From: an uncultured Planctomycetales bacterium
GTDB taxonomy: Bacteria; Omnitrophota; Gorgyraeia; Gygaellales; Profunditerraquicolaceae
Reading direction: 5' to 3'
Length of the DNA stretch: 64,000 nucleotides
Assembly (NCBI GenBank): GCA_964603585.1
Contig: CAZRVK010000003.1
Span: 3,693-67,692, forward strand
In this document: one piece after another, positions 3,001-27,000 of the stretch
Position numbering within the stretch: the first letter of the stretch is position 1
Layout of the letters: every line of letters starts with the position of its first letter
The notes under the pieces: model-generated
The model's input: only the letters and a program-made list of their open reading frames with translations
Told to the model about the DNA's origin: nothing
The model's database searches: none
Program-made: the position numbers and the translations under genes

Positions 3001-6000
3001 CCGTAGGCAACCGACTGCCGGATCAGCCGCAGAGGAGTTCATCAATGAATATCTTGTAATGGGCGGCGGTGGTTTTAATACTTCCGGACCAGCCAGGTCA
3101 ATGATTGATTATTATAGAAGGTTACCTGCCGATCAGCAAGAGGAGTTCAAAGGGAGATTATTGGTTGCCGCAGCAACAGCAAGTTTTGATGATGGAGGGA
3201 ATTCATTATTTATCCAAAAGACTATTTTTGAGATGTTCGGTATTTACATGCCTGCAGTGGGAGATATGGCTAGCTTAGCATCGTTCCTTTGTTTGGATAA
3301 ATGGTTTAAGGATTATGGGCAGTATACGGATCATCCGGATTATGCCCCGACCTTAAGGCAGGCTAAGACGCAACTGATCCTTGTTAATGCAAATAGGATG
3401 GAACTAAATGGTACTTCTAGTTGTGAATCATTAATGAGAGTAAGACTTGCAGATATACATACTAAGCAGAATTTTGACAAGCCATCTAACTGGCTGACAT
3501 TTTGTTCTAACATGCTTTCAGCGGCGCGGTTAATAGATGAAACATTCTTAAGTAAAGGTAAGCTTATATCCGGTAGCGCTGCATCGGTAGGAAATATTGT
3601 TGTTTTAGCTTCGCAGTTAGCCGCAGGCACAATTCAGCATAAGGCAAGAGGGCCGTTAAATTGTAATAAACTCATGGATGCTATCGGCGGATTTGATGAT
3701 ATGTATGCTTGTTTAGCTTCATTTGATGAAGGGACAATTGTTTCAGTATTTGAAGACGGTACATTAGTTTATACACAAACCCATACCACTGACGATGAGC
3801 ATCCGGCTTTAATAGATCATCTCATGCTTTATAAGCAGCGCAGAGACGCGGTAACCGGAATCCCTGTGCTTGATGAAAAAGGAAAAGAGATTTACGATCC
3901 GATGCCGCTTGAAGAGAGGCCTCAGGCCAGTCAAGAGTTGATCAATTTAATCGATCATACCCAAAAAGCTATCTATGTAGGCGCAGGCAGCATGTTTACT
4001 TCCATTGCTCCTGTTTTAATTTTAAGAGGGGTTGCAGAAGCATTAGCTAGAGCCAAGGCAAGGGGAGTATCAGTGATATTCGTATTCAAACCATCTTATG
4101 ACCTTGAGACATCTACATTGAGTGAAAATGGGGAATTCAGGTATTTATCTCCTAAGCCTCTTGCTCAGGCAGTAGAGAAGAGCATTAAAATAATCACCGG
4201 CACCACGCTTTCATTATCGGACATGTTTAGTCACGTGTATTTACCAAGAGTCCCTAAGAAGTTTCATCCACAAACTAAGAATGTCAAGGCCAAGAGTATC
4301 GGTTTTAAGGTAGCGGCAGGAAAGGATCCGGTAACTGGAGAAAAGAGAGAAGCATATCTGTTTAGTGAACAAGGCAAAGCAGAGATTGCGAAGATTGAAG
4401 ATTCTTTGCCTTGTACAGTCACGGCTGCTAAGTTGATGGCTATTGTCAAAGTTAAAGAAAATCTCACGCCAGAAGGACTTGCCGCAAAAGAAGGCAAGAA
4501 CTTAAAGGCCAGCAAGTTCATCGCCCTTCCCGCGGTAGAGACTACCGATGCAGAAGTTGAATATTTCAGGACTCTTGGGATTATCCCCAGGATTCTTGAT
4601 AAAGATGGAGATTACTTTATCTGGACCGGTAAGGCGCACTTCATACCGGATACTATCACTGGATATGTTAGGGAAGATGCGAATAGCTTAGGCTTGCAGA
4701 CTAGTGGGGTAAGGAAGGATGCGGATAGTGCATTGATATCTTCGAAACAAGGGATCATGGATCTGGAGAAGAAGAATAATTTATGGAGAGGACATGGTCT
4801 TTTGTTAAGGAATAAACATACCAATACAGGGTTGGTTATTTTGGCCGAGTCTAAGACCGGGAAATCTAATATTGCAAACCAGGTTCTTAATCTTGATCCT
4901 AACGGGTGGGAAATAATCGCGAATGACTTTATAGAATGGACCTTCGATGGCGATACTAATTCTCTTTATGCCGGGCTGAGATTTTCAAACAAGCCATCCA
5001 TTTTTTGGTTTAGAAACGAAAGCAAAAGAAAGTATGTAAGACCCAACCATATTGATAAGAGAGAATGGGTTTTAGTTACAAAAGTATATTGTTTGGTTAA
5101 AGAAGGGCAGAGTATCGAGGATGTGTTGCGCTATAACCAGGCAGGAGGAGAAACGAGAAAACCGTTAGCAGAATTCCCAGGCATAATGGATATTGCGATT
5201 AAGATTGATGTTCCACCCCAGTTAAGCAGCGCATATTTTATTTCTGCTGCAAAAGAAATAATCACTACTTTCCCCAAAGTATTTAGCGCGAATGGTTTTG
5301 CTGAAGAGAAGATTAAAGGACTAAACCAGCTTTATAAACGCGTAGATTTTCATAAGGTTGCGGCTTTCTTATTTAAGAGGGATGGTAAGGCAGCGGTTGT
5401 AATGTTAGGTTCTGATGTTGAAAAAGATGCATTATGGGATGATAAGAATGGGATTCTTAAGGGTAATGTTGATGAGTTAACCCTTTGGATAAATCACGTT
5501 TTTGGGTTAGATCTTCGCGGATGGGAATTGATAAGGGATATAAGGAATCCACCGATTATTTTCCGTAATAGCGCAGTTTTTACAAGCTTTAACGATGATG
5601 AGCTCGGAGATGAGCTGGAAGTCGAACATTATGTATTCGCCGGCATATTTTACATTGGTGATGAAAAAATGATAGCCAAACGGGTAAAAGCGGTACAGCG
5701 GCCAGCTTTTAAAACATACGAGTACCCGGTTGACAGAGTTGATGAATTTTCCAGAGAATTGAGGTCGCGAATTTTCCCTTGCCCCAGAATAAGTACTCCT
5801 TCTGGGGAGGTTTTAGGGGTTAAGGAAGTAATATTGCGAGAGCTAGATAGTGTAAAAAAAGAGCAATTTAGCAGCCCGCAGAAGCTCAAAGAATTAATAT
5901 CCCGCTACGTAAAAGATACTCCTGGTATAAGCGATAATAATTTGCATAGTAGCGTGGAACAAATATATGCACAGTACTCCTTTGTCACAAAAGCCTTTAA

Positions 6001-9000
6001 AGAAAGACCAGATTTTGACCAGGAGATGTTGTTTAATATGGCTTTTGTATTTATGCTGTATCTGCATAGCGGTCAGCCGCGTTACCATATTGTTAAGCCT
6101 TATGCCGTGCATCCCATGGCCGTTGTTTCTAATTTAGTAATAAATTACCTATTGCCAGTGCATCCCAGCTCTGATGAAGTCGATTATTACAGTGATTTAA
6201 ACATTAGGTCAAAGGTATTTGCCGTTATTGCGGGATTTTTACATGATACTGTGGAAGATATTGCGAAGACATCGTTAGGCAGGCAGTTTGCACCAGATAA
6301 AGAAGAATCACAGGTTGAAGAGCTTCAAGAAGAGGTTTTGGAAGCGATTGAATCCGTGTTTGGGCCTGAAATTTGCTGGCTAGTACGGATTCTTTCCAAA
6401 GAATATCGTAAGGGAATAACGCCAGGAGAAAAGTTACAACGGCAGGAGCGATATGTAGAAGGTTTAATGGAAGGCCCGGTAGAGGCTCAGTTAACAAAGC
6501 TAGCGGATTGGTATAGTAATTTTGCAGAGATTGTTTCTAATCCCGCTGATAGCTATGTGTTCTCATTTGTAGAAAAAGAGTTGCCTTCAGTTTGCAACCT
6601 TATGGATGGAAATCTTGTGCTTCCCAATAGAATACAAACACGCTTTTTAAATGATTTGCTTGGTTTAAGCAGCGCTAGAAGATTAGATTTACCCGGGAAA
6701 GGCTTATTTACTGAAGAAGAATGTGGTAGAATCTTAGATATAATTTATAGTAAGCTGGGTTCAAGAAATCCTCTTCAGACTAGCGGAGTGAGGAAGGGTT
6801 TGTTGTTAGAAAAAGTATATATATCCAAGAAACTTGCGGATATTGATTTAAATACGCTTAAGAAAGAAATCCAGGCTGGTTTTACTGCAATCTGTGATAT
6901 CAAGCGCATATTTGCTGGGGTACAGACGGTTTTAGTAAAACCAAGTTTAGCAACATTAAAGAATGCACAGGATAAAACTACGACCAATCCACTTTTAGTC
7001 GAAGCGATGATTGCGGTTTTACAGGAGTATGGCATACCGAGGATTATTTTAGGTGAAGGATGTGTGGTTGGCAATGATATGCATGCTATCTTTTCACAGA
7101 CCCAAATGTACGAGATAGCGCAACGTTATGGAGTCGAACTGGTTAATTTAAATGAAGCTTCGCAAACAACATTGACGGTTCCTGGTGGGCTTATTAGCAA
7201 AGAAATAAAGGTGGCAGAAATAGCTGCTCAATGTGATTTGATTATTAATATGCCAATAATGAAAACGCACGCGGAATCGGTTATTTCGATTGCGATGAAG
7301 AATCTCAAAGGCGTATTATCCTGGGCAGTAAAGAGAAGATTTCACATGAAAGGTGTTTTTAAGAGCGTAGTTGATTTAAATAAAACATTGCCTAACCAAT
7401 TAGTAGTTGTGGATGCTATAAGGGCTATGGAAGGGTTTGGTCCTGCCCATGGAGAAGTGGTAGAAGTCGGCAGGATCGTAATTGCGGGGGATGCTTTGGC
7501 CGCAGATATTGTATGCGCGCATATCATGGGAATTCCTTGTATTGAAATACCGACTATCCAATTAGCTACTGCAGATGGATGGGGGATACAAAATCCACAG
7601 GTAGTAGGCGATGATATTGAAAACGTAAGGCATTCAATCGGCAGGCCATTTAATAGGCCGTCATATAAAGACGCTATACGTATGCCGTATGCGCATGTTG
7701 TATATGGCCAGAAAACATGTAGTGGTTGTTATGGTACTTCTTCAAATGTCTTCCAGTATCTCGATATGACAAATGGCCCTGTAGATTGGGCGAAGAGGCT
7801 AGGGGAAGATTGGAAGATCGAATTGGATTTTTATGTAGGTGATGTTATCCCTGCACATATTGAGGAGGGGCATTTAGCGGTATTGGTCGGAAATTGCGCT
7901 ATCCAAAAAGCAAAACGGCTTGGTTTGATAGAAGAGAAAGGTATTGTATTTGTGGAAGGATGTCCTCCCGATGGGCGTTCCATATTCGAAGCGATAAAAA
8001 GAGGAAAAGATATGATGCAGGATTTCCCACTTCAGACCAGTGGAATTAGGAAGAAGCTGTTCTTCGATATTCATGCCGTTCGCCGATCTTGCCTTGAATT
8101 AAGCCACCCTGATCTTACCGGTACCGGCCAGAGGATTCGCAGTAATGCTGCAAAGCTTCTACGATTTGAAAGTAGTGAAACAGGCGGGATAATCATCTTA
8201 GAAAATATCATTTCTGAGGAAGATGCAAAGATAAAATCTGATCAGCAGCCGGATTGGGATGTATTGTTTGGCGCAGTAGTCTCCAGAAATATTCTGGGTG
8301 AGAGCGAGAATTCCACAGTCCAAGAATATCAGAGAGATTTAAAATGGCTGCCGGATGATAAAGGCAGAAGAGATTTTCATGTGCATAGCAGTCTTTCGGA
8401 TGGAGCAAGGACCATCGAGGGGGTAATTAGGGAAGCCGTAAGAACAGGCACTAAGTGGATAGCAATCTCTGACCATAATACTGTTATCGGTATGGATAAG
8501 AAACTTGAATTAGGCAGTAAATACGGTGTAAATGTTATCCCTGCATGTGAGTTTGAAAGTTCCGTAACAGTCAATTCTCTCACACGGGGGACTTTATTCG
8601 GGACAAATCATATTTTAGGATATTACTTAGATTGGAATAATCCGCAAATAATTGAATTATGCAAGAATCAGCATTCTATACAGCAATTCCGTGATTTATG
8701 GCAGGCGTATATATTGCAAAGATTTATTCGTCAAATAGGCCTTCCTCTTAAGCATTTTGATACAAAGATGCCTAATGGTGAAACAGTAACGATAAATCCC
8801 TTTGACGTTGCGACATTGATACCGGTGGCGATTCAAAGAAGGATTATCGCATTTGAAGAAAATGGTTTTACAGAAGAAGCAGATAAGGCAAGGATAGTGC
8901 TTGACGGATTAACAGAGGTAGGAGCCACAAGACGTTTAAAAGGAGAATACGTTCAAGGATTGATAAGTTTAATTGAAAAAGCGCTCCAGAATGAAGGGCA

Positions 9001-12000
9001 GTATCAATTATCAGCCGAAGAGAGAGCTCTTATATATAAGCTTTTTGAGTATGCTGATCTTAGCGTTTTATGGCAGGCAAAAAGTGTTTTAGCTTCGTAT
9101 CTTAGAGAGACTAATAAATTAGACACGACAGATATTTATGTTCAAGATATCGCAGGTATTTTTGGGGCTGAAGAAAGATGTAATGTTACTTATGCTACAG
9201 CAGAAGAAGTGGTAGGGAATATAAGAAAATCTGGAGGCGTTGCGGTTTATGCGCATCCAGGTTGGTACTTTGCCAATATTTTCCGTGAGCTCGGAATTCA
9301 AGAGACCTTGGATGGTGTCGCAGGCTTGATTGAAGGAATCAATCATAATACCCAGGGAGGTATTTCGGGAATAGAGGTTTATTATCCTTTTCAAGACCGG
9401 CTTAAGGGCGTTGATGATATTGCTGGAGAAAAGCAAGAATCGACAAAAGTAAAGTATTTTAGAGAAGTCGCCGAGAAATTAGGAATGTTTAGTACTTCCG
9501 GAGTAGATTGGCATAAAGGTAATAATGAGTTTGAGCATATGTCTACAGGGAGGAATTATAATCTTCATGCTTCTTACAGAATGGTCCTGGATATTCAGTG
9601 GGCTGCTAAGAATAGCCAGGTTATTCTTCAAACTTCATCGCTTCGCAAATCGCCCATTTTACAAAACAGTGTTCATATAGGCGGGCATGGTGAAGGATTA
9701 GGTTCTGTTTTTATTTTGCCCGAGAAGAAAACGCTTTCAGGATTTAGTCTTGATAACGGTGGATTTTTTAAGACATTTTTCCGAAATAGTCGAGGGGATG
9801 AATTTCGTAAGCAGCGTGCTAAAGCGCAGGAAGTCTTTGGATTTGTTCCTTACGGCAGTGTCCCGGTATCTTTGCTTGGCCGTGCTCCTCCCAGATTACG
9901 CATTATTCCTGTTTCTTCAAGACCAGCGAATATCAGAGTTGTCGCAGGACTTGTGGCAAAGATCGCGGCTGGCTTAAAACAAAGTTTGCCTACCGGAATA
10001 AAAATAGAGATAGCTGAACCCGCGTTATGCGACGATCTGTTCACAGCAATATCTGTCCCTTATTTAGTTTATCGGCATCAATATGCTTTACCGTATAGCA
10101 TAGAATCAGTATCTGCCGAAATCCCCACTTTAATTATTACTGATTCCGATCTGACTGGTTTCGGTCCTCAGGGGGAGATAAAAAATTATCTTTTTGGCAG
10201 GACATATCCCGCCAATAATATTACTATTACATCGCTTTTTAGATTTCAGCATCATGATAAAAAAGTTCTTCTTGGCAGGAATATTAAGAACGCGCTTCAT
10301 GAAATTGGACATTTGTTTGGATTAGGAACCAGCCGTGCGCGCCTAAGCGCTATGCAACATTGCGCTGATTTGAGGTGCGCGATGCACTTTACTGTTAATG
10401 TAGAAGAGCTCGATAAGGTTAACACTCGTTTTTGTAAAGCATGCAGCGCAGCTCTTGAACAACTGGGTGTAGTCCGTTCAGGCCGTTCTCTTGACAATGG
10501 CGGCACCGAGGAGAATGCGCTTACTTTCCCCAGGGTTAACCCGACAACAGCTAAGTCTTGGAATAAGCTAAAGGCACTTTTTGAGCGGATGAAGAAGGTA
10601 CATATGCTTGATATGTTTAACGCTGACCCAGAGCGCTTTAAGAAGTTTTCCATTCGTTTCGAAGATATGCTGGTAGATTTCTCAAAGAACATAATTGATG
10701 AAGAAGTTTTAACTGAACTTCTTAATTTAGCCCAAGAGGTTGGGCTTGGCGATGCCATTGAGGCAATGTTTACCGGCGCCAAGATCAATGGGACGGAAGG
10801 CAGAGCGGTTCTTCATACAGCTTTAAGGAATCTTTCGAATACTCCGGTTTATGTGGATGGCGAAGATGTAATGCCTAAGGTCAACCGTGTTTTAGCTCAG
10901 ATGGAAGAGTTCTCTGGAAAAGTTATATCCGGGGAGTGGGTGGGCTATACCGGGAAAGCAATTACAGATATTGTCAATATCGGTATCGGCGGCTCAGACT
11001 TAGGGCCGGTGATGGTAAAAGAAGCTTTAAAACAATATTCTGCGCGTAAAGGTTTAAGAGTGCATTTTGTGTCTAATGTGGACGGAACGCATATCGCAGA
11101 AATCCTCGCAGGCCTTGATCCCCAGACAACCCTGGTTATTATTGCTTCAAAGACCTTTACCACCCAAGAGACTATGAAAAATGCCAATACGGCTAAGGCA
11201 TGGTTCTTAGAAGAAGCAAAAGATAAAGAGCATATTAAGAAGCATTTTGTGGCAGTTTCTACAGCCAAAGAAGAAGTCCAGAAGTTTGGTATTGATACCG
11301 CGAATATGTTTGAGTTCTGGGATTGGGTGGGAGGAAGGTATTCTGTCTGGTCGGCAATCGGGCTTTCCGTGGCATGTTATATCGGTTTCGATAATTTTAA
11401 GCAGTTGCTTGCTGGCGCGCATGCTATGGATAAGCATTTCAGGAATACACCGTTTAACCGGAATATTCCTGTGATCTTGGCTTTATTAGGTGTCTGGTAC
11501 AATAATTTCTTTGAAGCCCAGACCCAGGCGATTCTTCCTTACGATCAACACTTACACCGTTTTGCCGCTTATTTCCAGCAGGGAGATATGGAGTCAAACG
11601 GCAAATATGTCGACCGTAACGGGAATCCGGTCGATTATCAAACTGGTCAGATTATTTGGGGTGAACCAGGAACAAATGGCCAGCATGCTTTTTATCAATT
11701 AATCCATCAGGGGACAAAAATAATACCCGCTGATTTTATTGCTTTTGCTCAAAGAAGCAATCAAGATTTTGATAAAGACCCAGAACTGAAGGCGTGTTTA
11801 GACGAACATCATAGAATATTCCTTTCCAATTTCTTTGCCCAGACCGAAGCTTTGATGAAAGGCAAATCTGCCGAAGAAGTCAGAGAAGATTTTAAGAAGG
11901 AAAATGCCAAAAGAAAAGCTAAAGGCCAAAAAGAGTTAACCGAAGAGGAGATCGTTCGGCTTACTCCTTTCAAAGTTTTTAAAGGCAACCGGCCAACTAA

Positions 12001-15000
12001 CTCGATCATGGCTAAGAAGCTTACACCTTATACACTTGGCGCATTGGTAGCGATGTATGAACACAAGATCTTTGTGCAAGGCCTGATCTGGAATATCTAT
12101 AGCTTTGACCAATGGGGGGTAGAGCTTGGTAAGAAACTTGCGGAAGGGATCTTGCCTCAGCTTGATCCTGAAGCTGAAGTAACCGGGCATGATTCATCGA
12201 CAACAGGTCTAATTGGTACTTATAAAGAAATGGCGGAAAAAGATAACGGGTCTATCGATAATGGCGGTTCTTATGCAAACAATATCCCCTTAGCATCTCA
12301 ATCTTCGATTAAAGCTGTGATCTTTGACTGGGGTAATGTGATAACGAGATTTGACTACGCGCGCGCAGCACAAATGCTGGCAGATCGATATGCCGTGCCT
12401 TTTGATACGGCGGTGCGGTTTCTGGAAGGACGTAATAATGATCCGGCAAATCCGCTTTATCAGCACGAGAGATGGATGATAAATGATATACAGCTTACGC
12501 GCGCGGTGCGGGATTGGATCAAGGCACACGGCGTCTTAAGGGATTCGGAGCATTTTGATTTGCGGCAAGTTAGTGATATCTTTAACAGTATTTGGGATTC
12601 TGATATCCCAGGAGTTGTTCCTTTTATGGCTCAATTAAAAGCAAAAGGGTATCTGGTCCGTATTTTATCCAATACAACCTCAATACATCATCGCTGGTTT
12701 GGAGAACATTCCCAGGCCGCTCAAATCCTTGATTCAAAAGAGCATTTCTATGCCTCATATCGGTTAAGGCTCGCTAAGCCGGATGCAGATATTTATCGTG
12801 CGGCTATTGGGCATTTAAGGTTAAAACCGGAACAATGTTTGTTTATTGATGACACGAAGGTGAATGTCGATGGTGCAAAACGGGTTGGGATAGAAGCGGT
12901 ACAGTTTAATCCGGATGAACCCGTAGCTTCTCTTGATACAATAGTCAATACTTTGATGCGTTTGTCCTCAAAAGAAGATTCTTTAGATAACGGTGGTACA
13001 GCTATCCCGCTCGATCAAGCCCGCTCTGCCTATCGATATATTGGTATCTCGATGGGGGGTAATAAACTTGCGGTATCCATTAATGACGGCAATAACAAGA
13101 TGCTTGCTGGGCCTGCAGAATTGCGTTGGGATAGCGATCATAGGTTTGATAATGAGCAGGTAAAAGATGTATCCCGGGCTGATGAGCTGATGAATACTTT
13201 GGTGGATATGATTGCCCGTCTTGCCGATGCTAATAAGATTGCCAGAAGTAGTTTAAAAGCCATAGGCGCTGGTTTGGCAGGCCCGCTGGATAAAGCTACA
13301 GGTATTTTCGGCTCAGATTTTAAAACACCCAACCTTCCTTTTAATAAGTATCCTTTCCGCGCAGAATTACAGAAACGGCTTCTTGTCCAAGGCATAGACA
13401 TTAAACTGGAAAATATTGATATGTATAACGACGGTGAAGCAGCCTTAAGAGGAGAAAGTTTTTCTCCGGAAGGCGCTTTAGCGGATAAAGACGGCGGGAT
13501 TGTTATTATCGGTGGAGGTATTAATATCGCAGTAAATAAAAAAGGGCATGGGTTTATCTATTTTGGCCCGGTTCAGGATAAAGGAGAGATTAAGGAGTGC
13601 GGGCATAACCTTTATCAGGTAAAAGCCGCTCAAGGTAGAATTCATTATTTTTGGTCTGGAGATAGAACTTTTGGCGGGCATCCTATTGAATTGGGCAACT
13701 CTTCCGAGGCAATTAAAGCAAAATGCGGCAATATGGGTGAAGAATACGTTAGGTTGGGAGAGGAAGCGTTTAGAAAAGTATATCCTGATTATCCGTTTAT
13801 CGCTAAAGGCCTGAAAGATTTTGAGGATAGATCTTCCGGCCCGAATATCCGCAAAAGGATCGCGCAAACGATTGCCAGGGCGAAACAAAGGCATTCGCCA
13901 AGGTTAGATGAATATCTGGCGATCGAAGCAACTGCCGGCCGGCAGAAACGCGCGAATGAACTTGAGCGGGCGATTACTCCCGAGGCGGAAAGCGGTAATA
14001 GAACAGCGCTTCGGCTGATCAGGATTTTTGCCGCAGAGATCGGACAGGCATTGGCTGCTTTTATTGCACACTACCAGGAAGAAGAATTTGTGCGGCACCT
14101 GGTATTGGTTTCGGGTGTAAATGAGAATATGGGTAAGGATGTCTATGAGACTGATGCCGACAGGATTAGCGGAATAGATGCATTTATCAAACATATCCGT
14201 ATGAGCGCGCGCCGTGAGCTGATCGAGCACTTTGGTGTTGAAGCAGACCGTGCAGAGGATATGGCTTCAGGCATTGTTCGCTCCAAGATGGATTACACCC
14301 GTGAACTGTTATCGTATCAGCCGACAGATACGGAAGTAATGGACGCGTATAAACAAACTAAAACTTCAGAAGCATCTTTAGATAATGGAGGATCGAGGCA
14401 AAACTTTACGGTTCTTGTGGCAGAGGATTCTCCGGTAGAACAAGACGAGTATATTGCTAAGCTGACCGCTAAAGGATATAAAGTGGTTCTTGCCAAAGAT
14501 GGTATAGCGGCTTTGAGTTTGCTTGAAAATGGTTTGGATCCGGATCTTGTGCTGACTGATTACAAAATGCCCGGGATGCGGGGAGTTATGCTGGCAAAAC
14601 GTATCCGCCAAATGCAAGCTACCATGCCGATCGTACTGCACACCAAGGAAGATGAGGTTATCGGAACAACTTATGAGATCGCGCCAGGTGAGAAGATCAC
14701 TGGTTTAAGTAAATATGCGCAGGAGGGTTTAGATGAAGTAGACAGAATATGGGCCAAGCTTAATAGCAACCAGAATAATACGACAGAAGGATCTTTGGAT
14801 AATGCAGGAGAATATGACAATGCTTATCCTGCCTCAATGGAGTTGACATCTGAAGAAATGACATTGCCCAATATGATGTTAGAAGAAGTTCAAACAGCCT
14901 TTGGGAAAATTGCTCCTTATAGCATGGGCGCGCGGATGTTCGCTTCTGCTTTAGCGGACAGTGTGGTGATCTCTATTCTGCCTTTTGATGCCCAGCAGGC

Positions 15001-18000
15001 AAGAAACCGGATCGGTTTTAGGGCGCAAGAAGCAATCGCGGTTTATGATGGCCAGATACTTTGGTTCTCCTGGGCGCTTCTAAGGCGTTTTCATAGGATA
15101 CATGAAGTTGATATTCATGTGGATAGCGCGGTATTAAAATATTTCCTTGAAGGGATTTTCTATCTCTATTTTGTTGCTGATCAGTCTTATCCTAAGCTGA
15201 TGCAGGAATGTTTATCGCTAAAAAAACATATTCTGGTTTCTACTTTATATGTCGCACAACACCCGGAATTATTCCATGTAAACGTTGCGCCAGCCTTTGT
15301 TTCTGAAATTAAAGCGAATACTCCCGAGGCATTGCAAGAATACCCCTCTTCCCAGATCAAATGGATTGCATTCGATCTTTATGGTGTTTTGCTTAATGAC
15401 ATAAATGAACAGCCGATCGAAGCGGTGGCCGGGCTGTTGTCTGGATTGAAGGAATTAGGGTATGGGATCGATATCCTTTCTAATGCCACAGCAAAAGAAT
15501 ATAAAGAAGCAAGTAAAATGCCCTTTATACGCTATGTCGATCGATTTTTCCCCGCATTTCATACTGAAACGAAAAAACCCGGGATCAGCGCCTTTGGTTT
15601 ATTGCTTAGGGGGCTGGCGATGCCTGATCCCCGCCAGGCTGTGCTTGTTATCGATGATTCCCAGAAGAACATCTCTGGGGCATCTGAACTCTTTGATCAT
15701 GTTATTTTTTACCAGGAGGGAGCCGATATTAAAGCAGCGTTACTTAAAAAAGGCGTATTTTTGCATGATGAAACTTCTTTTGATAACGGTGGAGAAGTAA
15801 ATCCCGGTATAGACATGCCATTTACCGAGTTATTATTTTTATTGTTGAAAGAAAACGTTTACGGAATAAGCCCGTCGACCTTTAAACTGGTTGCCTCACT
15901 TTTGGGCGTAGGCCAAGAGATCACTCCGGAAGTTATCGAAGTAATGAGAAAAGAATTGCCTCCGGAGTCATTATGGATGCTCCAAAGGGCGTATCGGGAT
16001 ATCGCTCAAAGATTCAATGCCCAGGGTATTGACGTAGCACAGTTTCGCAACAATCCATTTTTCTGGGGGAAGAATGCCGATGGGCAGGCATATCTTTTAA
16101 CCGGGCAGAATCTTTCTGCCGATGCCGTAGTAACAAAATGCGCGGGGTCAGAAGGATTCACCTCTAAGGTCAGCGAGATCGTAATTAAAGGGATACACGA
16201 TATTTTTGCCGCCGAAGGGATTAAGACCGAAGATTTTATTAAATTCGCTGATGCAGGGTCATGGCATGTAAGTATTGCTGCGCTTAAACCCAAACTCGAT
16301 ACCGATGTTACGGATGCGCAGGTCAGACAAGCAAGCGCCGATATTAAGCAGTTAACGCGTAATATGCGGTCCTTCTCTATCATTTTCGATAGGGTGATCA
16401 TTGCACCAAACGGCACGGTAATGGTGGTTGGCTATGATAACAACGGCCAGGCAACGCAGTTGCGGGACGGATTGGCAAAAAGTTACCGGGATTACGAATA
16501 TAGCCGGATGAATATCTTCCATATTACTATTGGACGATTCATTGAGAATCCGCCTCAACAGGTTGTAGAAACTTTAAAGAAGTGGGTTATGGCCTTTGCC
16601 TGGGAACGATTGGGGACGATTAAGGTGGATAGTATTGTTTTGGCAAGCCAGAAGGGCCCGATTATTCAGCCGACGTTTAAGGAGTGGGAAAGATTCGAAT
16701 TAGCAGGAAAACCGGTAATAAGTTTGAGCCTGGTTAACGAATATTCTCGGCCATCGGATATAAGTTTTATTAAACGCCAATTATTTATGTCCGGCGTCTA
16801 TGGTGCGCTTTTCTTTGCACCGATCGGGTTACTCGCGACACTTTATATCGCTCCATTTTCGCTTTTATGGATAGCGGTAGTCCCTGTTATTTCCGGATTA
16901 CTTGGCGGGGTTTTTCTTGCCGGGCTACATTTAATCGAATTACATCTATCAAACCCAACTCCCAGGGCTATTCTTGATGCCGAATGGCTTGCGGATATGG
17001 CGGTAAGGCATGAAAAGAAGGTTCTTCAAGGGCAGGTTGCAGAAGAGTCATTCGATAACGGGGGAGTATTTTCGGAAGGCACAACTCGAGACGATCCAGC
17101 CAAGAAACGTTTCCTGCACGTGGCTGTTGGCGTTATCGGTTTTGTTATTGTTGTAATAATCCTGAATAAGTTAGTTGTTACCCTCGGCCTATTCTCCGGG
17201 CAGAGCCTGTTTGCGCTTTATATCAGTGCCTACGCGCGGTATCCGTTTTGGGTCGCGGGCTTAACTGCTTCATTAGAAGGCGCCGGAGCGGAATTGATCG
17301 GGTATTACCTGGCGCGCAATAATAAAGAAAAAATAAGAACGTGGATTTCTATATCCAGGTTTACCGGGATATTTTTATTCAGGTTATTGATATTAGGCCC
17401 TACAGCCGGATTAGTCGATAGGTTCATTGAATATCTCCTTCCAAAATCCGCCGCCGTAGGGACATCCGATCTTATTTTGCGCGTAACATTATCTTTGATC
17501 CACGGGGTCATTTTAAGCAGTTTAGTTAATTTCCTGGCGCCTTATTTCTGTTTTAGGCTGGAAGCAAGAGCCAGGCTAAAAGAAGGAAAGTTAGCGGAGG
17601 CAGATGATCTAAGAGAAAAGTATACTGCGGCCAAACAACTCAAAAGGACATGGCATTCAATCATCTTACGCATCGGCCCGGTTATTATACAGCATGATAT
17701 TATCCAGAACATTTTCGGTTATGAATTAGCGTATAAGATATTATCACGGTTTGGCATTGGTTTTATAAATTCAATATACCGGAGCTGGATAACTAACCTT
17801 AGCCATAAGGTAAATATAACTTCCACGAATATCCTTGCGGTTACTTCTACGGTCGCATTGATCAGTTTTATCTGGGGGTCAAAGCTAACGGCTATTTCTG
17901 CAATCGCATTAGAGTTATTAATCGTGCTTTGCGAAAAGATAAAGGCCTTCAAAATAAAGCAAGCGCTTAATGATAGGGAGAAATCTTTGGATAACGGAGG

Positions 18001-21000
18001 GGGAAAACAGGCGTGGGATTACAGTGTTATTCAACGCGCGAAAGTCGGCAAGGAAATACCCCGCGTTTGGCAGGATTATTTGCCTGTCTTAGAGCATGTA
18101 ATTAGTGAAGACGATCAATTTATTAGTGACGCATTTCAGAATATATTCGGTTTAGAAATAACCCGTGCAGATATATCAGGCATAAATATCGAGTATCTGG
18201 TCTCTGGTGGCATAAAACACGTTTTTGTTACAACCGTTACGCTTGTGACCGGTAAAAGATATGTGTTTGCACTAAAGCCCACAATTGTCGGTTTAAGCTC
18301 GGAGGACAGGGAAGATATCATGTCTACTATGTGGACTTGGAACGGATTTTGCAAGCGGGGCATCAAAGGGATCGCTAAATTCGGAGCAGACGCGACAGTT
18401 TATTTCAGAGATTTTCATCATTCCAGCATGATCATTGCCCAGGAGTTTGTCCCCGGCAAAACACTGAAAGAAATTATTGATGATACGGATCTTCCTTACT
18501 GGGCGAAGACCCAGGCGGTACGTAATGCCTACCGGGCATACATTACTTTACGCAAAGATAATCTCATTGCCATTACCGATCCGAAACCGGCCAATATCGT
18601 CGCCCTTAATGGTTCTATTTTCGACTGGATAATCATTGATATGGATAAACTGCGCACCGGCAGTGACCCCTTGCAGAGGGGGATGTCTGTCGAAGAATAT
18701 GAGCAAATACTCGATAACTATTATATCGATGAAATTCAAAAGCCTGTTTCAGCTGAAGCCTTGCCTGGAGTTAAGATCTTAGGCCATGGCAATTTCTTCC
18801 CGGCTGATAAAATAATCCATTTTCCTGCTGGCCAACCGTTTCCGGTATTCTTTACGCTTGACACTACCTCACATATCCGAACAGCAAAAGTTCAGATACA
18901 GGCCAAGGTATGGTATGAGGATAAACTTACTGGGGGATGGGAAGAAGCATTTATGACGATGGTAAATGATTATGAAAATGGCTCATATAGGTTCGGGGCG
19001 TATCTTCCAAGTGATTTTGAAGGCAAGTTTACCTTTAAGGCTTCAGTGGATGGCGGGATAAACTGGCATTGGGCAAATAACGGGCCTTTCGATAACAGAG
19101 TGCTTGTGCGTATCGGTAAAGAGGCTCCTTTAGATAACGGGGGAGAAATCAAGACCGGCAAAGAATTTTTAAATTACGAACCCGTAGAGTTAGGATCCGG
19201 GACAAGCGGGATAAGAGGCTTGGTTGTAAACATGTCTGATCTGGAATGTTATATCAATACAGTGGGCTTTTTGGATTATTTGAAAGGAATAGGCCTGCAC
19301 GAAGGAGGTTTGCAGGGAGGGGAATATATTTGTGTTGCCGGAGATTTGCGCTCCAGTACTCCCAGGATAATGCGGGCAGTAGCTCAAGCTGTAGTTGATT
19401 CTGGATACCGTGTCGATAATTGCGGATTCATTCCTACTCCGGCATTGGCGTATTATGCCATGCAAAACCGGCGTGTTAGTATTATGGTCACCGGAAGCCA
19501 TATCCCGGATAACCGTAATGGGATAAAATTTTACAAATCAAACGGCGAGGTACTAAAATCCGATGAGGCAAAGATCAAAGAGCAGGTAACGTATGCAAGG
19601 GGAAATATTTATGCCAAGTTAGGCATGCCGGACTCATTGTTCAATGAGGAGGGGATGTTGATAACTGTGCCGCAATTGCCCCCGGTAAATCCTGCGGCAA
19701 GAGAAATGTATATTTTTAGATATTTGTCCTTGTTCCCGAAAGAATGCCTTGCCGGTAAGAGGATCGTTCTTTATGAGCACTCTTCGGTAGGCAGGGATAT
19801 TTTAGCTGAAATTTTCTCTGGATTAGGCGCAGAGGTTATAAGGGAAGGGAGGAGCGACGGTGTATTTATACCCGTTGATACGGAAGCCATACGTCAACAG
19901 GATTTGGATTGTATAAAAGAGTGGGCAGGTATTTATAAACCATTCGCGCTTATTTCTGCTGATGGAGATGCTGACCGTCCATGGTTATCAGATGAAAATG
20001 GTGTATTACTGCGGGGTGATTTGTTAGGTGTTTTCGCGGCAAAATACCTCAAGGCGGATTTTGCGGCTGTTCCGATAAGCACTAATGACGCGGTTGATAT
20101 CGCGCTTTCCGGAGAGGTAGCAATAGAAAAGACGAAAATAGGTTCTCCTTATGTTATCGCTGGCATGTTGGATGCGGTTAAAAAAGGTTTTCGCAGGGTT
20201 GTAGCCTGGGAAGCAAACGGAGGTTTTCTTTCGCAGACGGACATCGAAATAAATAATAAGCTGCTCAAGGCTTTGCCTACCAGAGATGCGGTTTTGCCTG
20301 TTATCTGCGCGTTGCTTCTGGCTGTTGATTCTGGCAGGCCGTTATCTGATCTTATAAGTGAACTGCCTAAGCGGTTTACTCATTCCGGACTGGTCAAGGA
20401 TTTTCCCGTTCCCGCATCACAATCGGTCATTAAGAGGATCTCTCCCGGGATCACTGATGTTGATGAGGTGTGTTTTAATGATTCTGTTCCGGTATTATTC
20501 CGGGATGGCGCAGTCTTGAGGCTTTTAAATGACAGCGATATATCGAGAAAGCTGTTGGCTTATAAGGCAATGGTTGAAAAGAGATATTTCCGTACTCATG
20601 GCCTTCCGGCGATTGCGAATATTAATTTAGTTGATGGAGTAAGGATCCGGTTTAAAAATAATGACATCATTCACTTCCGGCCTTCGGGCAATGCGCCTGA
20701 ATTGAGATGTTATTCTAATGCGGGGTCTACCGATCGCGCTATGGGGTTAGTTGATATAGGATTAATGAATATAATCCCGCTGTTGGCCTCACCATCTCTG
20801 GATAATGGAGGGGAAATAGATAATGGCGGAGATATTGTTAATACTGATGGTGATTTGCATATAGTTTGGTATGGCGATGATTATCCGCAAGAACAGGCCG
20901 CTGTTTATGAAGGCCGAAAGTTTGTACGGGTATACAGATCAATCAGGATGAATAAAAAGGTTAATTCTCCAGATCAGCAATTACTTCTGCGCCTGTGGTG

Positions 21001-24000
21001 CAGCCGCGCGGATAATCCGGATAAATGGTTTGAAATCCCGGCACAGATAATAAATGATTATGGCGATGGGAGTTACCGTTTTAAAGCGGACTTACCGCTA
21101 TTTTTCTCCGGAACATATACATATGTATTTTCAGCTGACCGAGGCAAGCATTGGTCCTGGTTAAACAATGGCCTGAAAGATAACAGGCGGATTTACAATT
21201 ATGTTTCTCTATTGCCTGATTTGCGTGAACGGGAAATATCTGTTTCTTTCGATAAGAAGGCGTTGTCAATGAAGAAGATCATTGATGGATCCCCTGATAT
21301 AGAAACGTTTTTCCGTTCACGTCAAGGGCAAAGAGGGGTGGCAAAACTCGAGTATTACCGGGATGAAAAACCAGTCGGGTTTGTTTACTATTTCGCCAGG
21401 ACTGAAGTAACCAAATTAACGGCAGAAGATTATAAGGTGATCTTTGCTGATTATATAGATAGTGCGGATGAAAAGCTGGGCGGGGCAGTTGCGATATATT
21501 TCAGCAGAAAAGATATGGCGGTTGTGGTTGATCTATATGGGAACATGCAGGAGGAAGTGATCTTCGGTAACATTGAAGAAAGATCCCGGGGTGAATTAAG
21601 CTGGGATAAGGCCAGGATCGTTATTGAACTTGATAATGACCTTAATGTCCGCAAGGTCAGGCATGAAAGAAGCTTTATGGGGTTATCGCGAATGGGGATA
21701 TCCATACTAATTTCTTCTGCCGGTATCCCCGAATCTTTTCCTGAATTGTATGAAACACTTAAATATAATCTGGGTTTGTGCGATGCCAATGAGATGGTCA
21801 GGCATGTGGAGAGGACAGATAATACTGTGGTTCCCTTAAGTTTGATCTCCAGGATTAATAAAGACCCGCAAACCGCCAAGATCGAGGATATTGAGAGGAT
21901 CAAAGACTTGATTTATTGTAAAAGCTGGGCTATCCGCAGGCTTGTTTTGGGTTGTTTAAAGCAGCTTGTCCAAGTGAACAAGTTCTCTATGGAAGAGCTT
22001 GATGAATTCAGGGGATTTGCAGAACGCTGCGAGATAACCGAGGATCTGCATCTTTTGCGCAGGCAGGCGCTTGAAAGGCCGGAGGATATTACGAGCGCTT
22101 TAGCGGTGCTTTTTGGCATACAGGTGGGAGTAGATGACCTTTCCGGGATGTACGCATATTGGTTTGGCGCTGGCCAAAATAAGAATATTTACCGCCTGAT
22201 AATTTCTTTGCGCGATTCCAGAGAATTTACTATGGCCGCTTCTACTATACGGCATGACGCGATAGGGCAAGGGTTCAGCAAAACAAGAATTGATGAATCT
22301 ACGCGGTTATGGCAGGAATTGTCCGAGGCCGGCTGCCCCTATGTGTGCAAGCTCGGCAAATCCGTATGGGTTGAAGATTACCGTCCGCGTGCTGCAGATA
22401 GAAGTGTCACGCCTTCTTTAAAACCCTGGGTATATTATGATCCGGCATGCCTTATACATAATGATATTAATCTTGTATACAGGGAGTTTGTAGAAGGCGA
22501 TGATTTAGAGGATATACTGGGTGCGGAAGGATTTGCTGACAAGGAGAAAGAAGAAGCGCTCGCCGCCTGCATCAATGTTTATGATAAGCTATGGAGATTT
22601 AACGACGGGGGATATTATATCGGTGATTATAAGCCATCCAATATAATCTTGAGTAAAGACGTAAACGGCCGGTTTATCGGTAAGATAACCGATTTGGATG
22701 CTTTACGCGCAAATGGTCGTCTTGAGGTGGTTTTTAATGCGGTTAAGGTTCATGCCTGTTATTTACCGCATTTAGCGGGGCTCCTGGCTAAGGAGAGAGT
22801 TTCTCAAATAACCGGTTCATATGTTGAGGATTTAGCCGATTCTTTAGGAGAGAACATAGTGTTTAGCCAGGAATTATATCCTTTGCCTTCTTGCGCGGGG
22901 ATAAGTATGGCCATTGAGCAATTCTTGAGTGGATTACATGCAAAATTACAATTGTTTGGGCTTGCAGGTGTCATAAACTTCAGCGTGCCGCTGGTGGAAT
23001 TAGTGGCGAATACGATCCAGCATGGATTAGGGGGAAAGATAGCCGTTGTCGTAAAGACCGATACTGACTGTAATCCTACAGATATCAAGGTATATTGCCA
23101 GGATTACGGATTAGGCATGGTTAGCCCGGATAAGTTGCTCAAACAAAGCTATGAGGCGCATAAATTAAAGAAACAAAGCGAAACAGAAGCTTTGGAGCGC
23201 GATGGGCTGCAAGGTGCGCCGGTACAAAAATGGCACGGCCTCGGGATGCTTAATATGTGCGTTTACCCTGATGAAGTAGAGATCAGGACTCCCGGAGGTG
23301 TATGGATAAAAGAAAATACCGGAGACGTTGGACAGCCAATATTAGTAAAGAAAGGAGAATCAAAATTTTCTTTCGGCACTATGACAGTATTGACCTGGCA
23401 TGTCAAAGATTGGGATCTTAAGAAGGAGGCGGTTTCAGAGGTTCAATCCGGTTCTGCCGCGTTTGGAATAATTCCTGTAAGCGTATTATTCATTTTAGTC
23501 TGGGCCGTAATTTATGGTTTATTTATTAAAGGCGGATGGGTCTCTAAAAAAGAGGAGGTGACGAGATGTCAAGATTTGAACAGCTCGAGTTCACCCGCGT
23601 CATGTCGCGAGAAGCAGGGATATTTATCTTTGCAAAATATCCTGGCTGGTATTATGAGTACAATTTTCTCATTCAGCCCAATGGTAAAGTCCAGGGGAAG
23701 ACAAGTTTTAACAATTGGGTTGAACTTAGCCGTGAATTGTCTGATATGGTTACTGCCAGGGTTAAAACCGTGTTTATTAGCCAAAAAGAACGGATTTCTT
23801 CGTAAGGAAAATGGAGGTATATTTTTATCGCCGGAAAAGAAAACGATTACAAGCCATAGCTTATCTTTGGATAATGGAGGAGAGGTCCAGAAGAAAGCAA
23901 AGATCTCTATGTTTGCCAATGTAGTGCGCCAGATCAATACCGCGGCGCGCGCTATGGGGCTTCATCCGGAGATCCTGGATCGCCTGGTCAATCCTAAGCA

Positions 24001-27000
24001 TTTCAAAGAAGTGCGCATGGATATACCGGTTGCGGTCGAAGGCAAGACTGTAAATCTGATTGGATTCCGGATCGTGCATAATGATGCCCGCGGCGCAGGT
24101 AAAGGCGGGATCCGTTTTGATAATGTGAAGTCGCTGGATGATCTAAGCGCAGAAGAACTCTTAGAGGTGATTGCCCATATTCTCGATGAGGATCGGGCGC
24201 TGGCCAGTTGGATGAGCTTAAAGAATGCCGTGGCGCTTATCCCTTACGGCGGAGGCAAGGGGTGTGTGGCGGTGCCTCTGGATATTGTTCCGAAAAACGC
24301 CAAAGGGGAGGAAGTCGTCGGTTATGTGCATTCTGCGGTGATCCGCCAGTATGTTTTAAAGGCTTATGAACAGGGTAAATACCTTTTTGGGCCATATATA
24401 GATGTGCCGGCCCCGGATATGCGTACTAAAGGCCAGATCATGGGGTGGTTCCTGGATGAACATTTAAAATTAAAGACCAGGCTTAACCTTTTAGAACAGC
24501 ATTTTATAGACAGGTTACTTCCATTATTAGACACTGAATATGATATCCTTAAAACTCCTTTTTATGATTTGTACTTGTCCCTGGGAGGCACAGTTGAACT
24601 CGGTACTATTACAGGAAAACAGGTTTCAAGGGATGATCCTGAAACCGGCTCAAAAATAATGATCGGCGGGTCCTTGGGCCGTGAAGCGGCAACCGGCCGC
24701 GGTGTGGTTTATGCGACGATCGAGGCGCTCAAGGAGTTTGGTGAAAGGTTAGGTATTGGCACAGAGTTGAGAGGAAAGACCGTTGCGGTGCAGGCGATCG
24801 GTAATGTCGGCGGGCATGCCGCGAGGATTTTCTTTGAAGAAGGGGCAATTGTTACCGAAGTTAGCGATTTTCCGGGAAAAATCACTGATCCCCGGGGGAT
24901 CGATATGGCGGATCTTTTCGCACGGATAAAACGCGATGGGATGCTTAAGGCTTTCCAAGAAACCCATGGTTTTGAGCCGTCGGATAAGGCAGTATCAATT
25001 TTAGAAGCCGATGTGGATATTTTAGTGTTGGCATATCGGGAAAATCAGCTTACCAAAGATAATGCCGGCAGGGTGAGAGCCAAGATCGTTGTTGAAGGCG
25101 CTAACGGCCCGACTACTCCGGAAGCAGACGCGATCTTAGAGGCTAAAGGGATTATTGTGGTGACCGATATTTTAGCTAATATCGGCGGTGTGGTAGTTTC
25201 ATATTTTGAATGGCTGCAGAACTTAAAAGGCGAGCATTGGACGGAGATCGCAGTAAATAAGATGTTGGAACAAAGAATGGCGGTTTCCTTCCGCGATGTT
25301 GTCGCCTCTTCCCGGCAATACAATGTCAGTTTGAGGATCGGGGCGACTATTTTAGCGATAAAACGGATTGCTTCGGCAATGGTGGCAAATGATAAGGATT
25401 TAAGGCAGAAGATTTCCGCAGAAAACGTACTTCCCTATAAAGGTTACGATATCCTTGAGTGTTACGAAACTCAAGAAGAGCTCAACCTCATTTATGAATC
25501 CGGACGTTATCAGGAATTTGTAGATTTGCGTGAAGGGCAAATTGACCGTGAGATCGAGCTGATTGCCGAACGTCTCTTAAAAGAACTGCCGCAAAACAGC
25601 AAGAATTTCGTCTTGGTTTCTGGGCCTAGCGCAGTCGGTAAACCTTATTTTGTCATACGTCTTGCGGAAGCGGTCAGGCGTATTGATAGAAAGATACGTA
25701 CTTGTTGTTTTGCCTTAGATACTAACGGTGCAGCTTTATTCGATGTTATAAAGAGTTTGGATAAGAACAGCATAATATTTATTCACGGCGATAATGCCCT
25801 GGATAAATATTTTGTCAGGGCATTTAACCCCAGAAATACGATCACTATCTTTGAAAATACCGCACCCAGCCTGAAATTATCCGGCAATAAGCCTTTTACC
25901 TCGTCAGATCTTAGGCTGTTGAGACTTATCCTGGAAAAGGCCGCTGAAGGGTATTCGGCAATCGATGTGATAAGGGATTGGCATGATTTACGCGCCCAGC
26001 AGATCGAAAATATCTATCCGAACTGGGGGAATGCCCGCATTACATTTAATGGCCAGGTCGGTTATGAATTACCGTTTTTAAGGAATGCCTTAGAGGGGAT
26101 ATTAAAACAGGCTTTAGTGCAAGCCCAAGCCGCGGATGCCCCGCATTCTTTGCAGATCATCTCTGGCCTCTTGGATTTATTCCAGGGTTTTGTGGCCATG
26201 CCTTTATTAAGGGTGGAAGATTTGCCTTTGCGCTCTACCCCGCGCCAGTTTATCCGCAAGACAGAGGATGTTTTATCTGCGCTTAATTCTACGGCAAAAA
26301 TTAATGGGCAAACTCCTTCAGGCAAAGTTAATAATTATCCTCTACCCGTATCGGCCCAGATCCATGAGGGTATGCTTGAAAGCGGGGCTTCCTGTTCGGG
26401 AAAGGCCGAGGCAGTATTGCGCGACGGAAAATATATTTTTGAATGGAAAGAAAACGCTTCCGAGAACCTGTGGCGGGAGATATTGGAAAGCCTGGCAAAC
26501 GAGCAGGCGGTATTTGCCCGCGGGCCGCCGAGTTTCATTGTCGAGATCACTCTTGATAAGGAAAAACTCGGGGTACATCCGGCAAGCGGATTGGTTTATA
26601 TCGCTGCCTGCGATATCGATACGAAAGTCATTTATCTGCACCCGTACTTCTTCGAACAAAATCCATTAAAGCAAAAAGTAATTTTATACCATGAATTGAT
26701 CAGCCATATCTCTATGGCAATTAAAAACGAAGAGCAGGCTATGACAGATACCTTGGTTTTTTCCGATAAACATCTGGGTAAAGACCTGGAGAAAGATTCT
26801 GTCGACGGTATTTTTATTATCCCTGCCAGTGCCCGAAACCAGGCGTTTGCTAAGCGTCTGGTTGCTCTAAATGAACAATCCCGGAAACAGGGAACGGACA
26901 GTGTCATTCAGGCAGTGCTGGAAGATGATGAGTTAAGAACCAGGGTTTGTTCACTGATCCGCACCCAGGATAGATTGGGCAATACCCGGGGTTATTATGT

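Follow-up and report, generated by a model that had tools for sequence, protein, structure and literature searches.

Is the product of a giant bacterial gene used as one chain, or is it cut into separate enzymes, and at which points? Giant genes of 30,000-150,000 codons are a recognised puzzle of the Omnitrophota. Whether their products work as one chain or are cut has been raised before, and cleavage has been proposed with the cleavage points unknown, a lack that blocked structure-based analysis (bioRxiv 10.1101/2023.11.21.568195). Here we describe a 64,000-nucleotide stretch of such a gene (the window; contig CAZRVK010000003.1 of assembly GCA_964603585.1, positions 3,693 to 67,692 of the forward strand), in which a short peptide, SLDNGG and its variants, recurs between enzyme-sized units, the first of which is a protease module of the archaemetzincin family (Peptidase_M54). 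We propose that residues 3249-7960 of the encoded protein may form a self-contained, protease-first cassette for polyprotein processing, in which the M54 module would cut at the motif, and we put the chances of this reading at about even.

The forward frame whose codons start at nucleotide 2 contains 21,333 codons and no stop and is open at both ends of the window; the other two forward frames contain 1,417 and 1,714 stops. No closed long open reading frame (ORF) is listed for the window, as the giant frame exceeds both ends. The absence of stops places the SLDNGG motif inside a single giant ORF:

2..63998, + strand: part of a giant multi-enzyme gene (stop count and Pfam tiling)

More than 20 distinct Pfam families tile this frame, with no dominating repeat. 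A first group comprises radical SAM, CofD-like, DUF362 and PHP domains; a second Peptidase_M54, phosphoglucose isomerase (PGI, 795 bits), HAD hydrolase, ROK and response-regulator receiver domains; and a third PGM/PMM, glutamate dehydrogenase (GDH), glycogen phosphorylase, PTA and acetate kinase. Further matches are HD, several methyltransferases, cytidine deaminase, a pyridoxal phosphate (PLP) enzyme and HATPase_c. A plain Kyte-Doolittle hydropathy scan, which is not a dedicated predictor, gave 54 candidate membrane segments, most of them after residue 9,600. No C39, S8 peptidase or SecA-DEAD-like domain is among the Pfam matches of the window's 21,333 residues, the ends of the gene lying beyond the window. 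Where the nearest relatives of the modules lie in long ORFs, most of them carry the label Candidatus Omnitrophota, Omnitrophica or Gygaella obscura. The window, with a G+C content of 44%, belongs to a giant multi-enzyme gene such as those described from Omnitrophota.

A short peptide at enzyme boundaries

A six-frame search of the whole window for [SP][LFI]DN[GA]G gave 12 matches, every one of them in the coding frame, the other five frames being empty. These coincide exactly with the twelve positions listed in an earlier note on this DNA, made from the letters alone, which had described one of them as doubled; the doubled copy consists of an SLDNGG-type motif at nucleotide 20795 followed in tandem by EIDNGG at nucleotide 20813, so that the copies number 13. 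DNGG occurs 12 times where composition predicts 0.23 (Poisson P = 3e-17), and all 13 copies are confined to residues 3249-7960 of 21,333. The consensus proposed in that note holds and is slightly longer than it had claimed, running from Glu at -2 (7/13) through a variable residue to Ser (11), Leu (9), Ile (2) or Phe (2), Asp (13), Asn (13), Gly (12) or Ala (1) and a final Gly (13). Downstream, an acidic or small residue is weakly favoured, and after it a hydrophobic or aromatic one. The copies, and the modules identified between them, are as follows:

9746..9763, + strand: copy 1, SLDNGG (residue 3249), directly N-terminal of the M54 module
9764..10486, + strand: module M1, archaemetzincin-type (Peptidase_M54), residues 3255-3495, with HEIGH at residue 3433 (nucleotide 10298)
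10487..10504, + strand: copy 2, SLDNGG (residue 3496), M54/PGI boundary
10505..12250, + strand: module M2, predicted complete PGI (Pfam 795 bits)
12251..12268, + strand: copy 3, SIDNGG (residue 4084), PGI/HAD hydrolase boundary
12980..12997, + strand: copy 4, SLDNGG (residue 4327), HAD/ROK-type kinase boundary
14375..14392, + strand: copy 5, SLDNGG (residue 4792), ROK/response-regulator receiver boundary
14792..14809, + strand: copy 6, SLDNAG (residue 4931), behind the receiver domain
15776..15793, + strand: copy 7, SFDNGG (residue 5259)
17048..17065, + strand: copy 8, SFDNGG (residue 5683)
17984..18001, + strand: copy 9, SLDNGG (residue 5995)
19127..19144, + strand: copy 10, PLDNGG (residue 6376), ahead of the PGM/PMM-like enzyme
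19145..20794, + strand: module M10, predicted complete PGM/PMM-like enzyme of 550 residues (size match to free-standing homologues)
20795..20830, + strand: copies 11 and 12 in tandem (residues 6932-6943), behind the PGM/PMM-like enzyme
23864..23881, + strand: copy 13, SLDNGG, the last (residue 7955), ahead of GDH

The codons of these copies vary, as the earlier note had also observed. Serine is encoded by TCT, TCA or AGT, leucine by CTT, TTA, TTG or CTG, asparagine by AAC (six copies) or AAT (seven) and glycine by all four of its codons. Such free synonymous variation indicates selection on the peptide and not on the nucleotides, and the motif is conserved at the peptide level. This bears on whether the motif could be the scar of an insertion, such as a recombination site, a translated intergenic region or a ribosome-binding site, or else a co-translational 'stop-go' signal. 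A scar would suit the cassette-like look of the blocks, the different G+C content of the block upstream and a diverged direct repeat of about 15 residues that flanks the SLDNGG block. However, hardly a synonymous position is alike among the copies, with serine written both as AGT and as TCN, which leaves no conserved DNA or RNA site, and neutral scars would not stay identical as peptides. The use of different motifs within one protein also argues against a signal read by the ribosome, and we find this family of explanations barely credible. A translated ribosome-binding site in particular, with GGAGG read as Gly-Gly, was rejected on the use of all four glycine codons, both asparagine codons and both AGT and TCN serine codons.

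The first and last copies carry an extended upstream context of the form G[SG][VI]F[IL][LS]PEKKT[LI][ST], present as the earlier note had reported; the two are about 70% identical at the nucleotide level:

9701..9745, + strand: extended context upstream of copy 1, 15 residues
23816..23863, + strand: extended context upstream of copy 13, 16 residues

The first of these belongs to a mini-segment of 32 residues (nucleotides 9650-9745) that lies between the last LQTSSLRK, a copy of the junction peptide of the upstream block described below, and the first SLDNGG. It shares the PEKKT context with the tail before the last copy, and a diverged direct repeat of about 15 residues thus brackets the whole SLDNGG block. 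Another GG precedes both repeat copies (HIGG and ENGG), and small peptides might be released there.

Do the motifs fall where one enzyme ends and the next begins? Each interval between motifs is one enzyme-sized unit. The distance from the preceding motif to the start of the Pfam domain is 6 residues for the receiver, 13 for HAD and ROK, 18 for PGM, 42 for GDH and 57 for PGI, and such offsets are usual from the N-terminus of free-standing enzymes. The unit between copies 2 and 3 has 582 residues, and ordinary PGIs, of about 549 residues, cover its positions 6-574. Free-standing homologues of the PGM/PMM-like enzyme, found in an alignment scan of metagenome contigs that returned mainly free-standing enzymes and few giant relatives, are ORFs of about 510-565 residues from stop to stop and match residues 8-544 of the 550-residue unit. 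An AlphaFold2 (AF2) model of residues 3480-4110, built with 39 PGI homologues, gave a PGI fold with a predicted local distance difference test score (pLDDT) above 90 (model residues 31-604). Motif copies 2 and 3 (model residues 17-22 and 605-610) are modelled there as coil, their pLDDT being below 50, and copy 3 begins one residue past the last PGI helix. The placement at domain boundaries claimed in the earlier note is therefore supported by Pfam, by the PGI and PGM alignments and by the AF2 model, and the motifs are predicted to occupy exposed linkers where complete enzymes naturally start and stop.

A scan of genome contigs, whose search patterns were dominated by a universal PGI peptide, returned ordinary PGIs alone; those of Bacteroidota and Gammaproteobacteria share 61-66% identity with the embedded PGI. 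Judged by its sequence, the embedded unit appears to be a housekeeping enzyme in full working order. In a genome survey PGI was scored as 'missing' from most Omnitrophota (67 of 176), and copies concealed within giant ORFs might be part of the reason. Two units, M9 (nucleotides 18002-19126) and M11 (nucleotides 20831-23863), have in common a kinase-like region and a second, beta-rich region, 'GSYRF...NWxWxNNG'. The latter is possibly carbohydrate-binding, and the kinase-like part has a homologue in P0129, from an Omnitrophica metagenome-assembled genome.

An archaemetzincin-type module and its relatives

Which enzyme could recognise such a peptide? The M54 module is the sole recognised protease domain in the window and the first unit of the motif block, and it is flanked on both sides by the motif here and in relatives. 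Module M1 scores 47.1 bits against Pfam PF07998, where the cut-off is 24.4. Its signature, read directly, consists of HEIGHLFG, a 10-residue insertion and HC-x4-C-x-M-x16-C-x2-C. Set against the family consensus HEXXHXXGXXHCX4CXMX17CXXC (PMC3427221), it keeps every metal ligand, the catalytic Glu and the Met turn; its spacing deviates in the 10-residue insertion, which precedes the third zinc ligand, and in having x16 where the family has x17. A profile from an alignment that included M1 and its homologues matched the structures 2X7M, 4AXQ and 3ZVS at E = 1e-50 to 1e-52. The AF2 model of M1 has a pLDDT of 86.7 and, in Foldseek, target-normalised template modelling (TM) scores of 0.74-0.85 to 2X7M, 3ZVS and 4AXQ. 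The top five Foldseek matches are all archaemetzincins, with probability 1.0 and TM scores of 0.64-0.85. By Pfam, signature, profile and predicted fold M1 is an archaemetzincin, and we consider it a candidate processing protease.

The natural substrates of archaemetzincins were described as unknown in 2012, and the archaeal enzymes as inactive on standard substrates (PMC3427221). The S1' pocket of the family is small and closed (PMC3427221), which would fit Gly or Ala at P1' and is compatible with a dedicated site. A second HExxH occurs in the window at residue 13322 (nucleotides 39965-39979), where Pfam gives no match. Two Omnitrophota fragments, P0128 (HELFHHLNP) and P0130 (HEVYHILNP), have similar sequence at their N-termini, and the window copy could belong to a further small metalloprotease-like element.

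An exhaustive HMMER search of 1.84 billion representative proteins returned 352 matches to M1; a word-indexed protein search with the M54 unit returned none. The closest homologues are modules in long multi-enzyme ORFs, most labelled Omnitrophota. Sought in these homologous genes, the motif was found in many of them, flanking M54 in register in the same or a related form (xDNGG, TNGS or DNG[ND]). Representative arrangements, in residues of each protein where numbers are given, are as follows:

P0131: LDNGG at 26, HExGH at 190, LDNGG at 256
P0133: PGM, VDNGG, M54, SDNGG, PGI
P0136: LDNGG, M54, SDNGG and one further copy
P0132: M54, FDNGG, transaldolase-transketolase, SLDNGG, HAD
P0134 and P0171: DNGG ahead of M54
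P0139 (2,947 residues): PRTNGS seven times, all after residue 1,573; M54 between TNGS and TNGR
P0196 (7,074 residues, the start of a Candidatus Gygaella obscura giant gene): DNG[ND]; M54 at 4466-4589

In P0139 a GDPD domain (2242-2488) lies between motif copies at 2227 and 2507. P0196 has six DNG[ND] copies after its M54 module, and none in its first 4,460 residues or in the 3,276 residues of the upstream neighbouring ORFs. The motif block begins at the protease or one unit earlier in the window, in P0196 and in P0139, where it starts one unit before M54. Throughout the variants that accompany M54 only the Asn and the following Gly or Ala are invariant, Ala replacing Gly in three copies (window residue 4931, P0135 and P0131).

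By a crude count, 8 of 13 M54-containing relatives have M54 flanked by a motif of the NG type; among 12 long ORF fragments that other modules had brought up, 1 contains such a motif (Fisher P = 0.008). These small, fragmentary samples come from lineages that are not independent. The closest PGI relatives (69-71% identity) use a different peptide, RSExR, while M54 relatives at 38-54% identity keep DNGG. The link between motif and M54 is therefore not simply one of phylogenetic proximity.

Some features of individual loci deserve mention. In L163 (GCA_964494745.1, nucleotides 4490-4560) the M54 module ends in ...GNAGRAGQG and is followed by an in-frame stop, two codons before the junction motif; past the stop, the same frame runs on for another 603 codons, which may reflect a true gene boundary, read-through or a mistake in the assembly. 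At L164 (JAVCCR010000012.1) the giant gene of Candidatus Gygaella obscura exceeds 7,074 codons. It opens with a membrane helix and a Peptidase_C39 domain, and two T2SSF genes stand immediately upstream of it, an arrangement known for such genes from the literature. P0134 was considered as a free-standing protease with a motif-bearing propeptide and rejected, the locus being the end of a longer ORF broken by an assembly gap.

The relatives also allow us to ask whether another protease would make the cut, either a C39 (double-glycine) peptidase acting after Gly-Gly, the main candidate, or a host protease. In the window 12 of the 13 copies end in Gly-Gly and one in AG, and the Glu lies 8 residues before the putative C39 cut, as in double-glycine leaders. 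Full-length giant genes reportedly encode C39 domains close to the N-terminus (bioRxiv 10.1101/2023.11.21.568195), and P0196 has one at its own N-terminus. Against this, the residues invariant across variants are Asn and Gly/Ala, not Gly-Gly. P0196, itself equipped with C39, uses DNGN and DNGD, P0139 uses TNGS, and the related variants end in GN, GD, GS or GR. The motif has an invariant Asp at -4, where leaders need a hydrophobic residue, and lacks their hydrophobic pattern at -7 and -12. Finally, the window has no C39 domain in its 21,333 residues, and the normal targets of such domains are N-terminal leaders, processed at an exporter. We consider cleavage by a protease of this other kind distinctly unlikely.

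Other junction peptides in the frame and in relatives

Is the SLDNGG block a single case? Upstream of it, a different peptide, LQTS[GS][VLI]RK, occurs six times with varied codons and separates CofD-like, radical-SAM, DUF362 and PHP units. Its copies span nucleotides 680..9649:

680-703, + strand: LQTS[GS][VLI]RK, residue 227
2567-2590, + strand: LQTS[GS][VLI]RK, residue 856
4694-4717, + strand: LQTS[GS][VLI]RK, residue 1565
6773-6796, + strand: LQTS[GS][VLI]RK, residue 2258
8030-8053, + strand: LQTS[GS][VLI]RK, residue 2677
9626-9649, + strand: LQTS[GS][VLI]RK, residue 3209

No protease candidate for this peptide was found within the window. The upstream block (nucleotides 2-9649) has a G+C content of 41.1%, and 35.8% at third codon positions, whereas the SLDNGG block has 44% and 42%, and the rest of the window from nucleotide 9746 to 63998 has 44-45.5% and 42-46%. 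This contrast suggests blocks of different origin within one ORF. Two paralogous ends of CofD-like units within the upstream block (nucleotides 2-700 and 3986-4717) are 58% identical over 243 residues, each followed by an identical LQTSGVRK.

Related giant genes carry further peptides. P0098, from an error-ridden low-coverage contig (locus L001) with a PGI that is 70% identical, has ten copies of x[DN]NGGx[YF]. At locus L002 (GCA_964499085.1) RSE[TMVI]R occurs 12 times in the giant-gene ORFs P0003 and P0004, including both sites that flank PGI, and not at all in nine neighbouring genes. P0094 has seven copies of R[SA]ELR, P0122 and L086 have xDGG, and P0129 and P0161 have SSP[VIA]; some multi-domain relatives have no junction motif. 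Junction peptides are, on these sequences, a general phenomenon.

The diversity of these peptides bears on the possibility that the motif cleaves itself or serves as a chemical timer, through spontaneous succinimide formation at Asn-Gly leading to scission or deamidation without a protease. Asn-Gly is the most reactive sequence for deamidation, it is invariant or nearly so in all NG-type variants, and here it would lie in a flexible linker, modelled as coil by AF2. However, Ala after Asn strongly slows this chemistry and is tolerated in the three copies mentioned, and the conserved Glu, Ser, Leu and Asp are left unexplained by it. Succinimide formation at this pair leads chiefly to deamidation and less to scission. 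Known Asn lyases depend on a folded active site, while the motif is coil with pLDDT below 50 and lies outside the folds. Peptides free of Asn (LQTSGVRK, RSExR and SSPV) also stand at equivalent positions. Taken together, we judge spontaneous cleavage very improbable.

A proposed processing route and its known counterparts

How might the cassette work? M1 and each of ten downstream units are bracketed by (E-x-)S-[LIF]-D-N-[G/A]-G, in linkers predicted to be exposed, a few residues past the enzyme ends. We propose that the giant chain would be translated on the cytoplasmic side, that the M54 module would recognise the motif and that it would cut there, most likely between Asn and Gly/Ala. The protease itself would be released, and then PGI, the HAD phosphatase, the ROK kinase, the receiver, PGM and the other units, which could then form their normal oligomers; PGI is a dimer and GDH a hexamer. 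We place the cut at Asn|Gly because these are the only invariant positions and because the S1' pocket of archaemetzincins is small and closed. The SLDNGG block has no convincing membrane helix before residue 5594, and this, together with its cytoplasmic-type enzymes and the Cys4 zinc site, suggests that processing would be cytoplasmic. Other blocks and lineages, with different junction peptides, would presumably use other proteases.

The earlier note had argued for a functional junction rather than a passive linker, and had offered a protease site, an autoproteolytic Asn-Gly site or a recognition tag as its role. Conservation at the peptide level, exact placement and conservation in register speak for the functional junction. 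From these features we infer a protease site as the favoured option, while the autocatalytic option is weakened by the Ala in three copies, by conserved E, S, L and D residues that are irrelevant to the chemistry and by Asn-free peptides in the same role. A candidate protease, the M54 module directly behind the first copy, had gone unnoticed in that note.

Several points weigh against M54 cutting at the motif. Cleavage itself, M54 as the cutter and the bond that is cut are all inferred. Metzincins usually favour larger P1' residues, and human archaemetzincins have been described as aminopeptidases (PMC3427221). Among the M54-containing relatives, P0161 has SSP[AV] instead of a motif of the NG type, P0140 and P0156 have no junction motif, and in P0135 and P0141 an NG-type motif is present and does not flank M54. 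Most relatives are contig fragments, which limits any inference that M54 is absent from them, and the close free-standing M54 homologues P0137 and P0138, from high-GC bacteria, have no such motif in neighbouring genes. The last 13,373 residues of the window (residues 7961-21333, nucleotides 23882-63998) contain no recurrent junction peptide above shuffled controls, so that processing cannot be the rule for the whole protein. In this part hydrophobic helix-like segments occur every 300-500 residues between GDH, phosphorylase, PTA/Ack, HD, methyltransferases, deaminase, the PLP enzyme and HATPase.

In the main alternative the giant protein stays a single working chain, and the motif, left uncleaved, is a conserved hinge or a tag at which a partner docks, such as a chaperone, a scaffold or a membrane insertion factor. 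That cleavage is a proposal leaves room for it. The motif-free two thirds of the window must work uncleaved or be separated only by membrane helices, and some multi-domain relatives do without a motif. A passive hinge, however, needs no six invariant residues, and this reading is also opposed by motifs just past the natural termini of oligomeric enzymes such as PGI and GDH, by a protease module flanked in register on both sides in many relatives, and by motif blocks that begin at or beside the protease. The in-frame stop of L163, two codons before the motif, would also mean that separation is apparently tolerated, unless it is an assembly error. On balance we find the uncleaved chain unlikely.

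Returning to processing by M54, a broader picture can be drawn, which we hold tentatively and rate below an even chance. In Omnitrophota, enzymes of central metabolism may be made as blocks of giant polyproteins, each block being headed by a protease that cuts it apart at junction peptides particular to the lineage. On this view the M54 family would gain in (S)LDN|GG its first natural substrate motif, and the peptides as a whole, including RSExR, xDGG and SSPV, would amount to a 'cleavage code' for splitting giant proteins.

The class of giant genes and the cleavage hypothesis are already known; the junction code and the candidate protease look new. Neither bioRxiv 10.1101/2023.11.21.568195 nor bioRxiv 10.64898/2026.06.07.730766 mentions a junction motif, linkers, M54 or metzincins, and a full-text literature search for the motif strings returned nothing relevant. 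A strict peptide bracketing what appear to be complete enzymes supplies concrete candidate cleavage points, and the M54 module that travels with it supplies a candidate enzyme. If the proposal is true, this would be the first natural substrate for the archaemetzincin family, and a cellular organism would be using the viral fuse-and-cleave strategy for housekeeping metabolism. The motifs also let annotators split giant ORFs into enzyme-sized units and may recover 'missing' glycolytic steps, such as PGI, in surveys of Omnitrophota.

The closest known systems include the giant proteins of Omnitrophota themselves, the Archaeovorins (bioRxiv 10.1101/2023.11.21.568195) and the multi-enzyme metabolic clusters (bioRxiv 10.64898/2026.06.07.730766). 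The window is like them in ORF length, enzyme tiling and membrane helices, and matches the 'multi-enzyme metabolic cluster' class in particular. Those preprints propose cutting by C39 or S8 peptidases; the window instead offers a specific junction peptide and a different candidate protease. The known archaemetzincins (MEROPS M54; AmzA of Methanopyrus and Archaeoglobus, human AMZ1/2) share the signature and predicted fold of M1. Unlike M1, they are small and free-standing, whereas M1 is a giant-protein module with a 10-residue insertion, bracketed by its candidate substrate motif.

In viral polyproteins (picornavirus 3C; coronavirus Mpro, LQ|S, and PLpro, LXGG|) a short peptide likewise recurs between units, and the site motif varies between lineages there as here; the candidate protease of the window is itself flanked by the recurring motif. 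The present system differs in being cellular, in carrying housekeeping metabolic enzymes and in having a metzincin rather than a Cys or Ser protease as its candidate, with cleavage as yet conjectural. Moreover, sites are confined to some of the blocks, and a single protein contains two or more classes of them. Double-glycine leaders, cut by the C39 domains of ABC exporters, share the terminal Gly-Gly and the Glu 8 residues upstream, but the window motif is internal and repeated, has Asp at -4 and has related variants without the second Gly.

MARTX toxins are also very large bacterial proteins of unrelated enzymatic modules, which an internal cysteine protease is thought to release. Their sites are loose (after Leu, in unstructured linkers) and are cut inside the host after activation by inositol hexakisphosphate, in contrast to the strict motif of 6-8 residues and the metabolic enzymes of the window. 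A further parallel is found in engineered 'fuse-and-cleave' nif polyproteins with tobacco etch virus (TEV) protease sites, in which enzymes are likewise placed in one ORF with a repeated protease site and obtain a fixed stoichiometry from one transcript (PMC6130400). That system is synthetic, with the viral protease supplied separately, and the window would be its natural bacterial counterpart.

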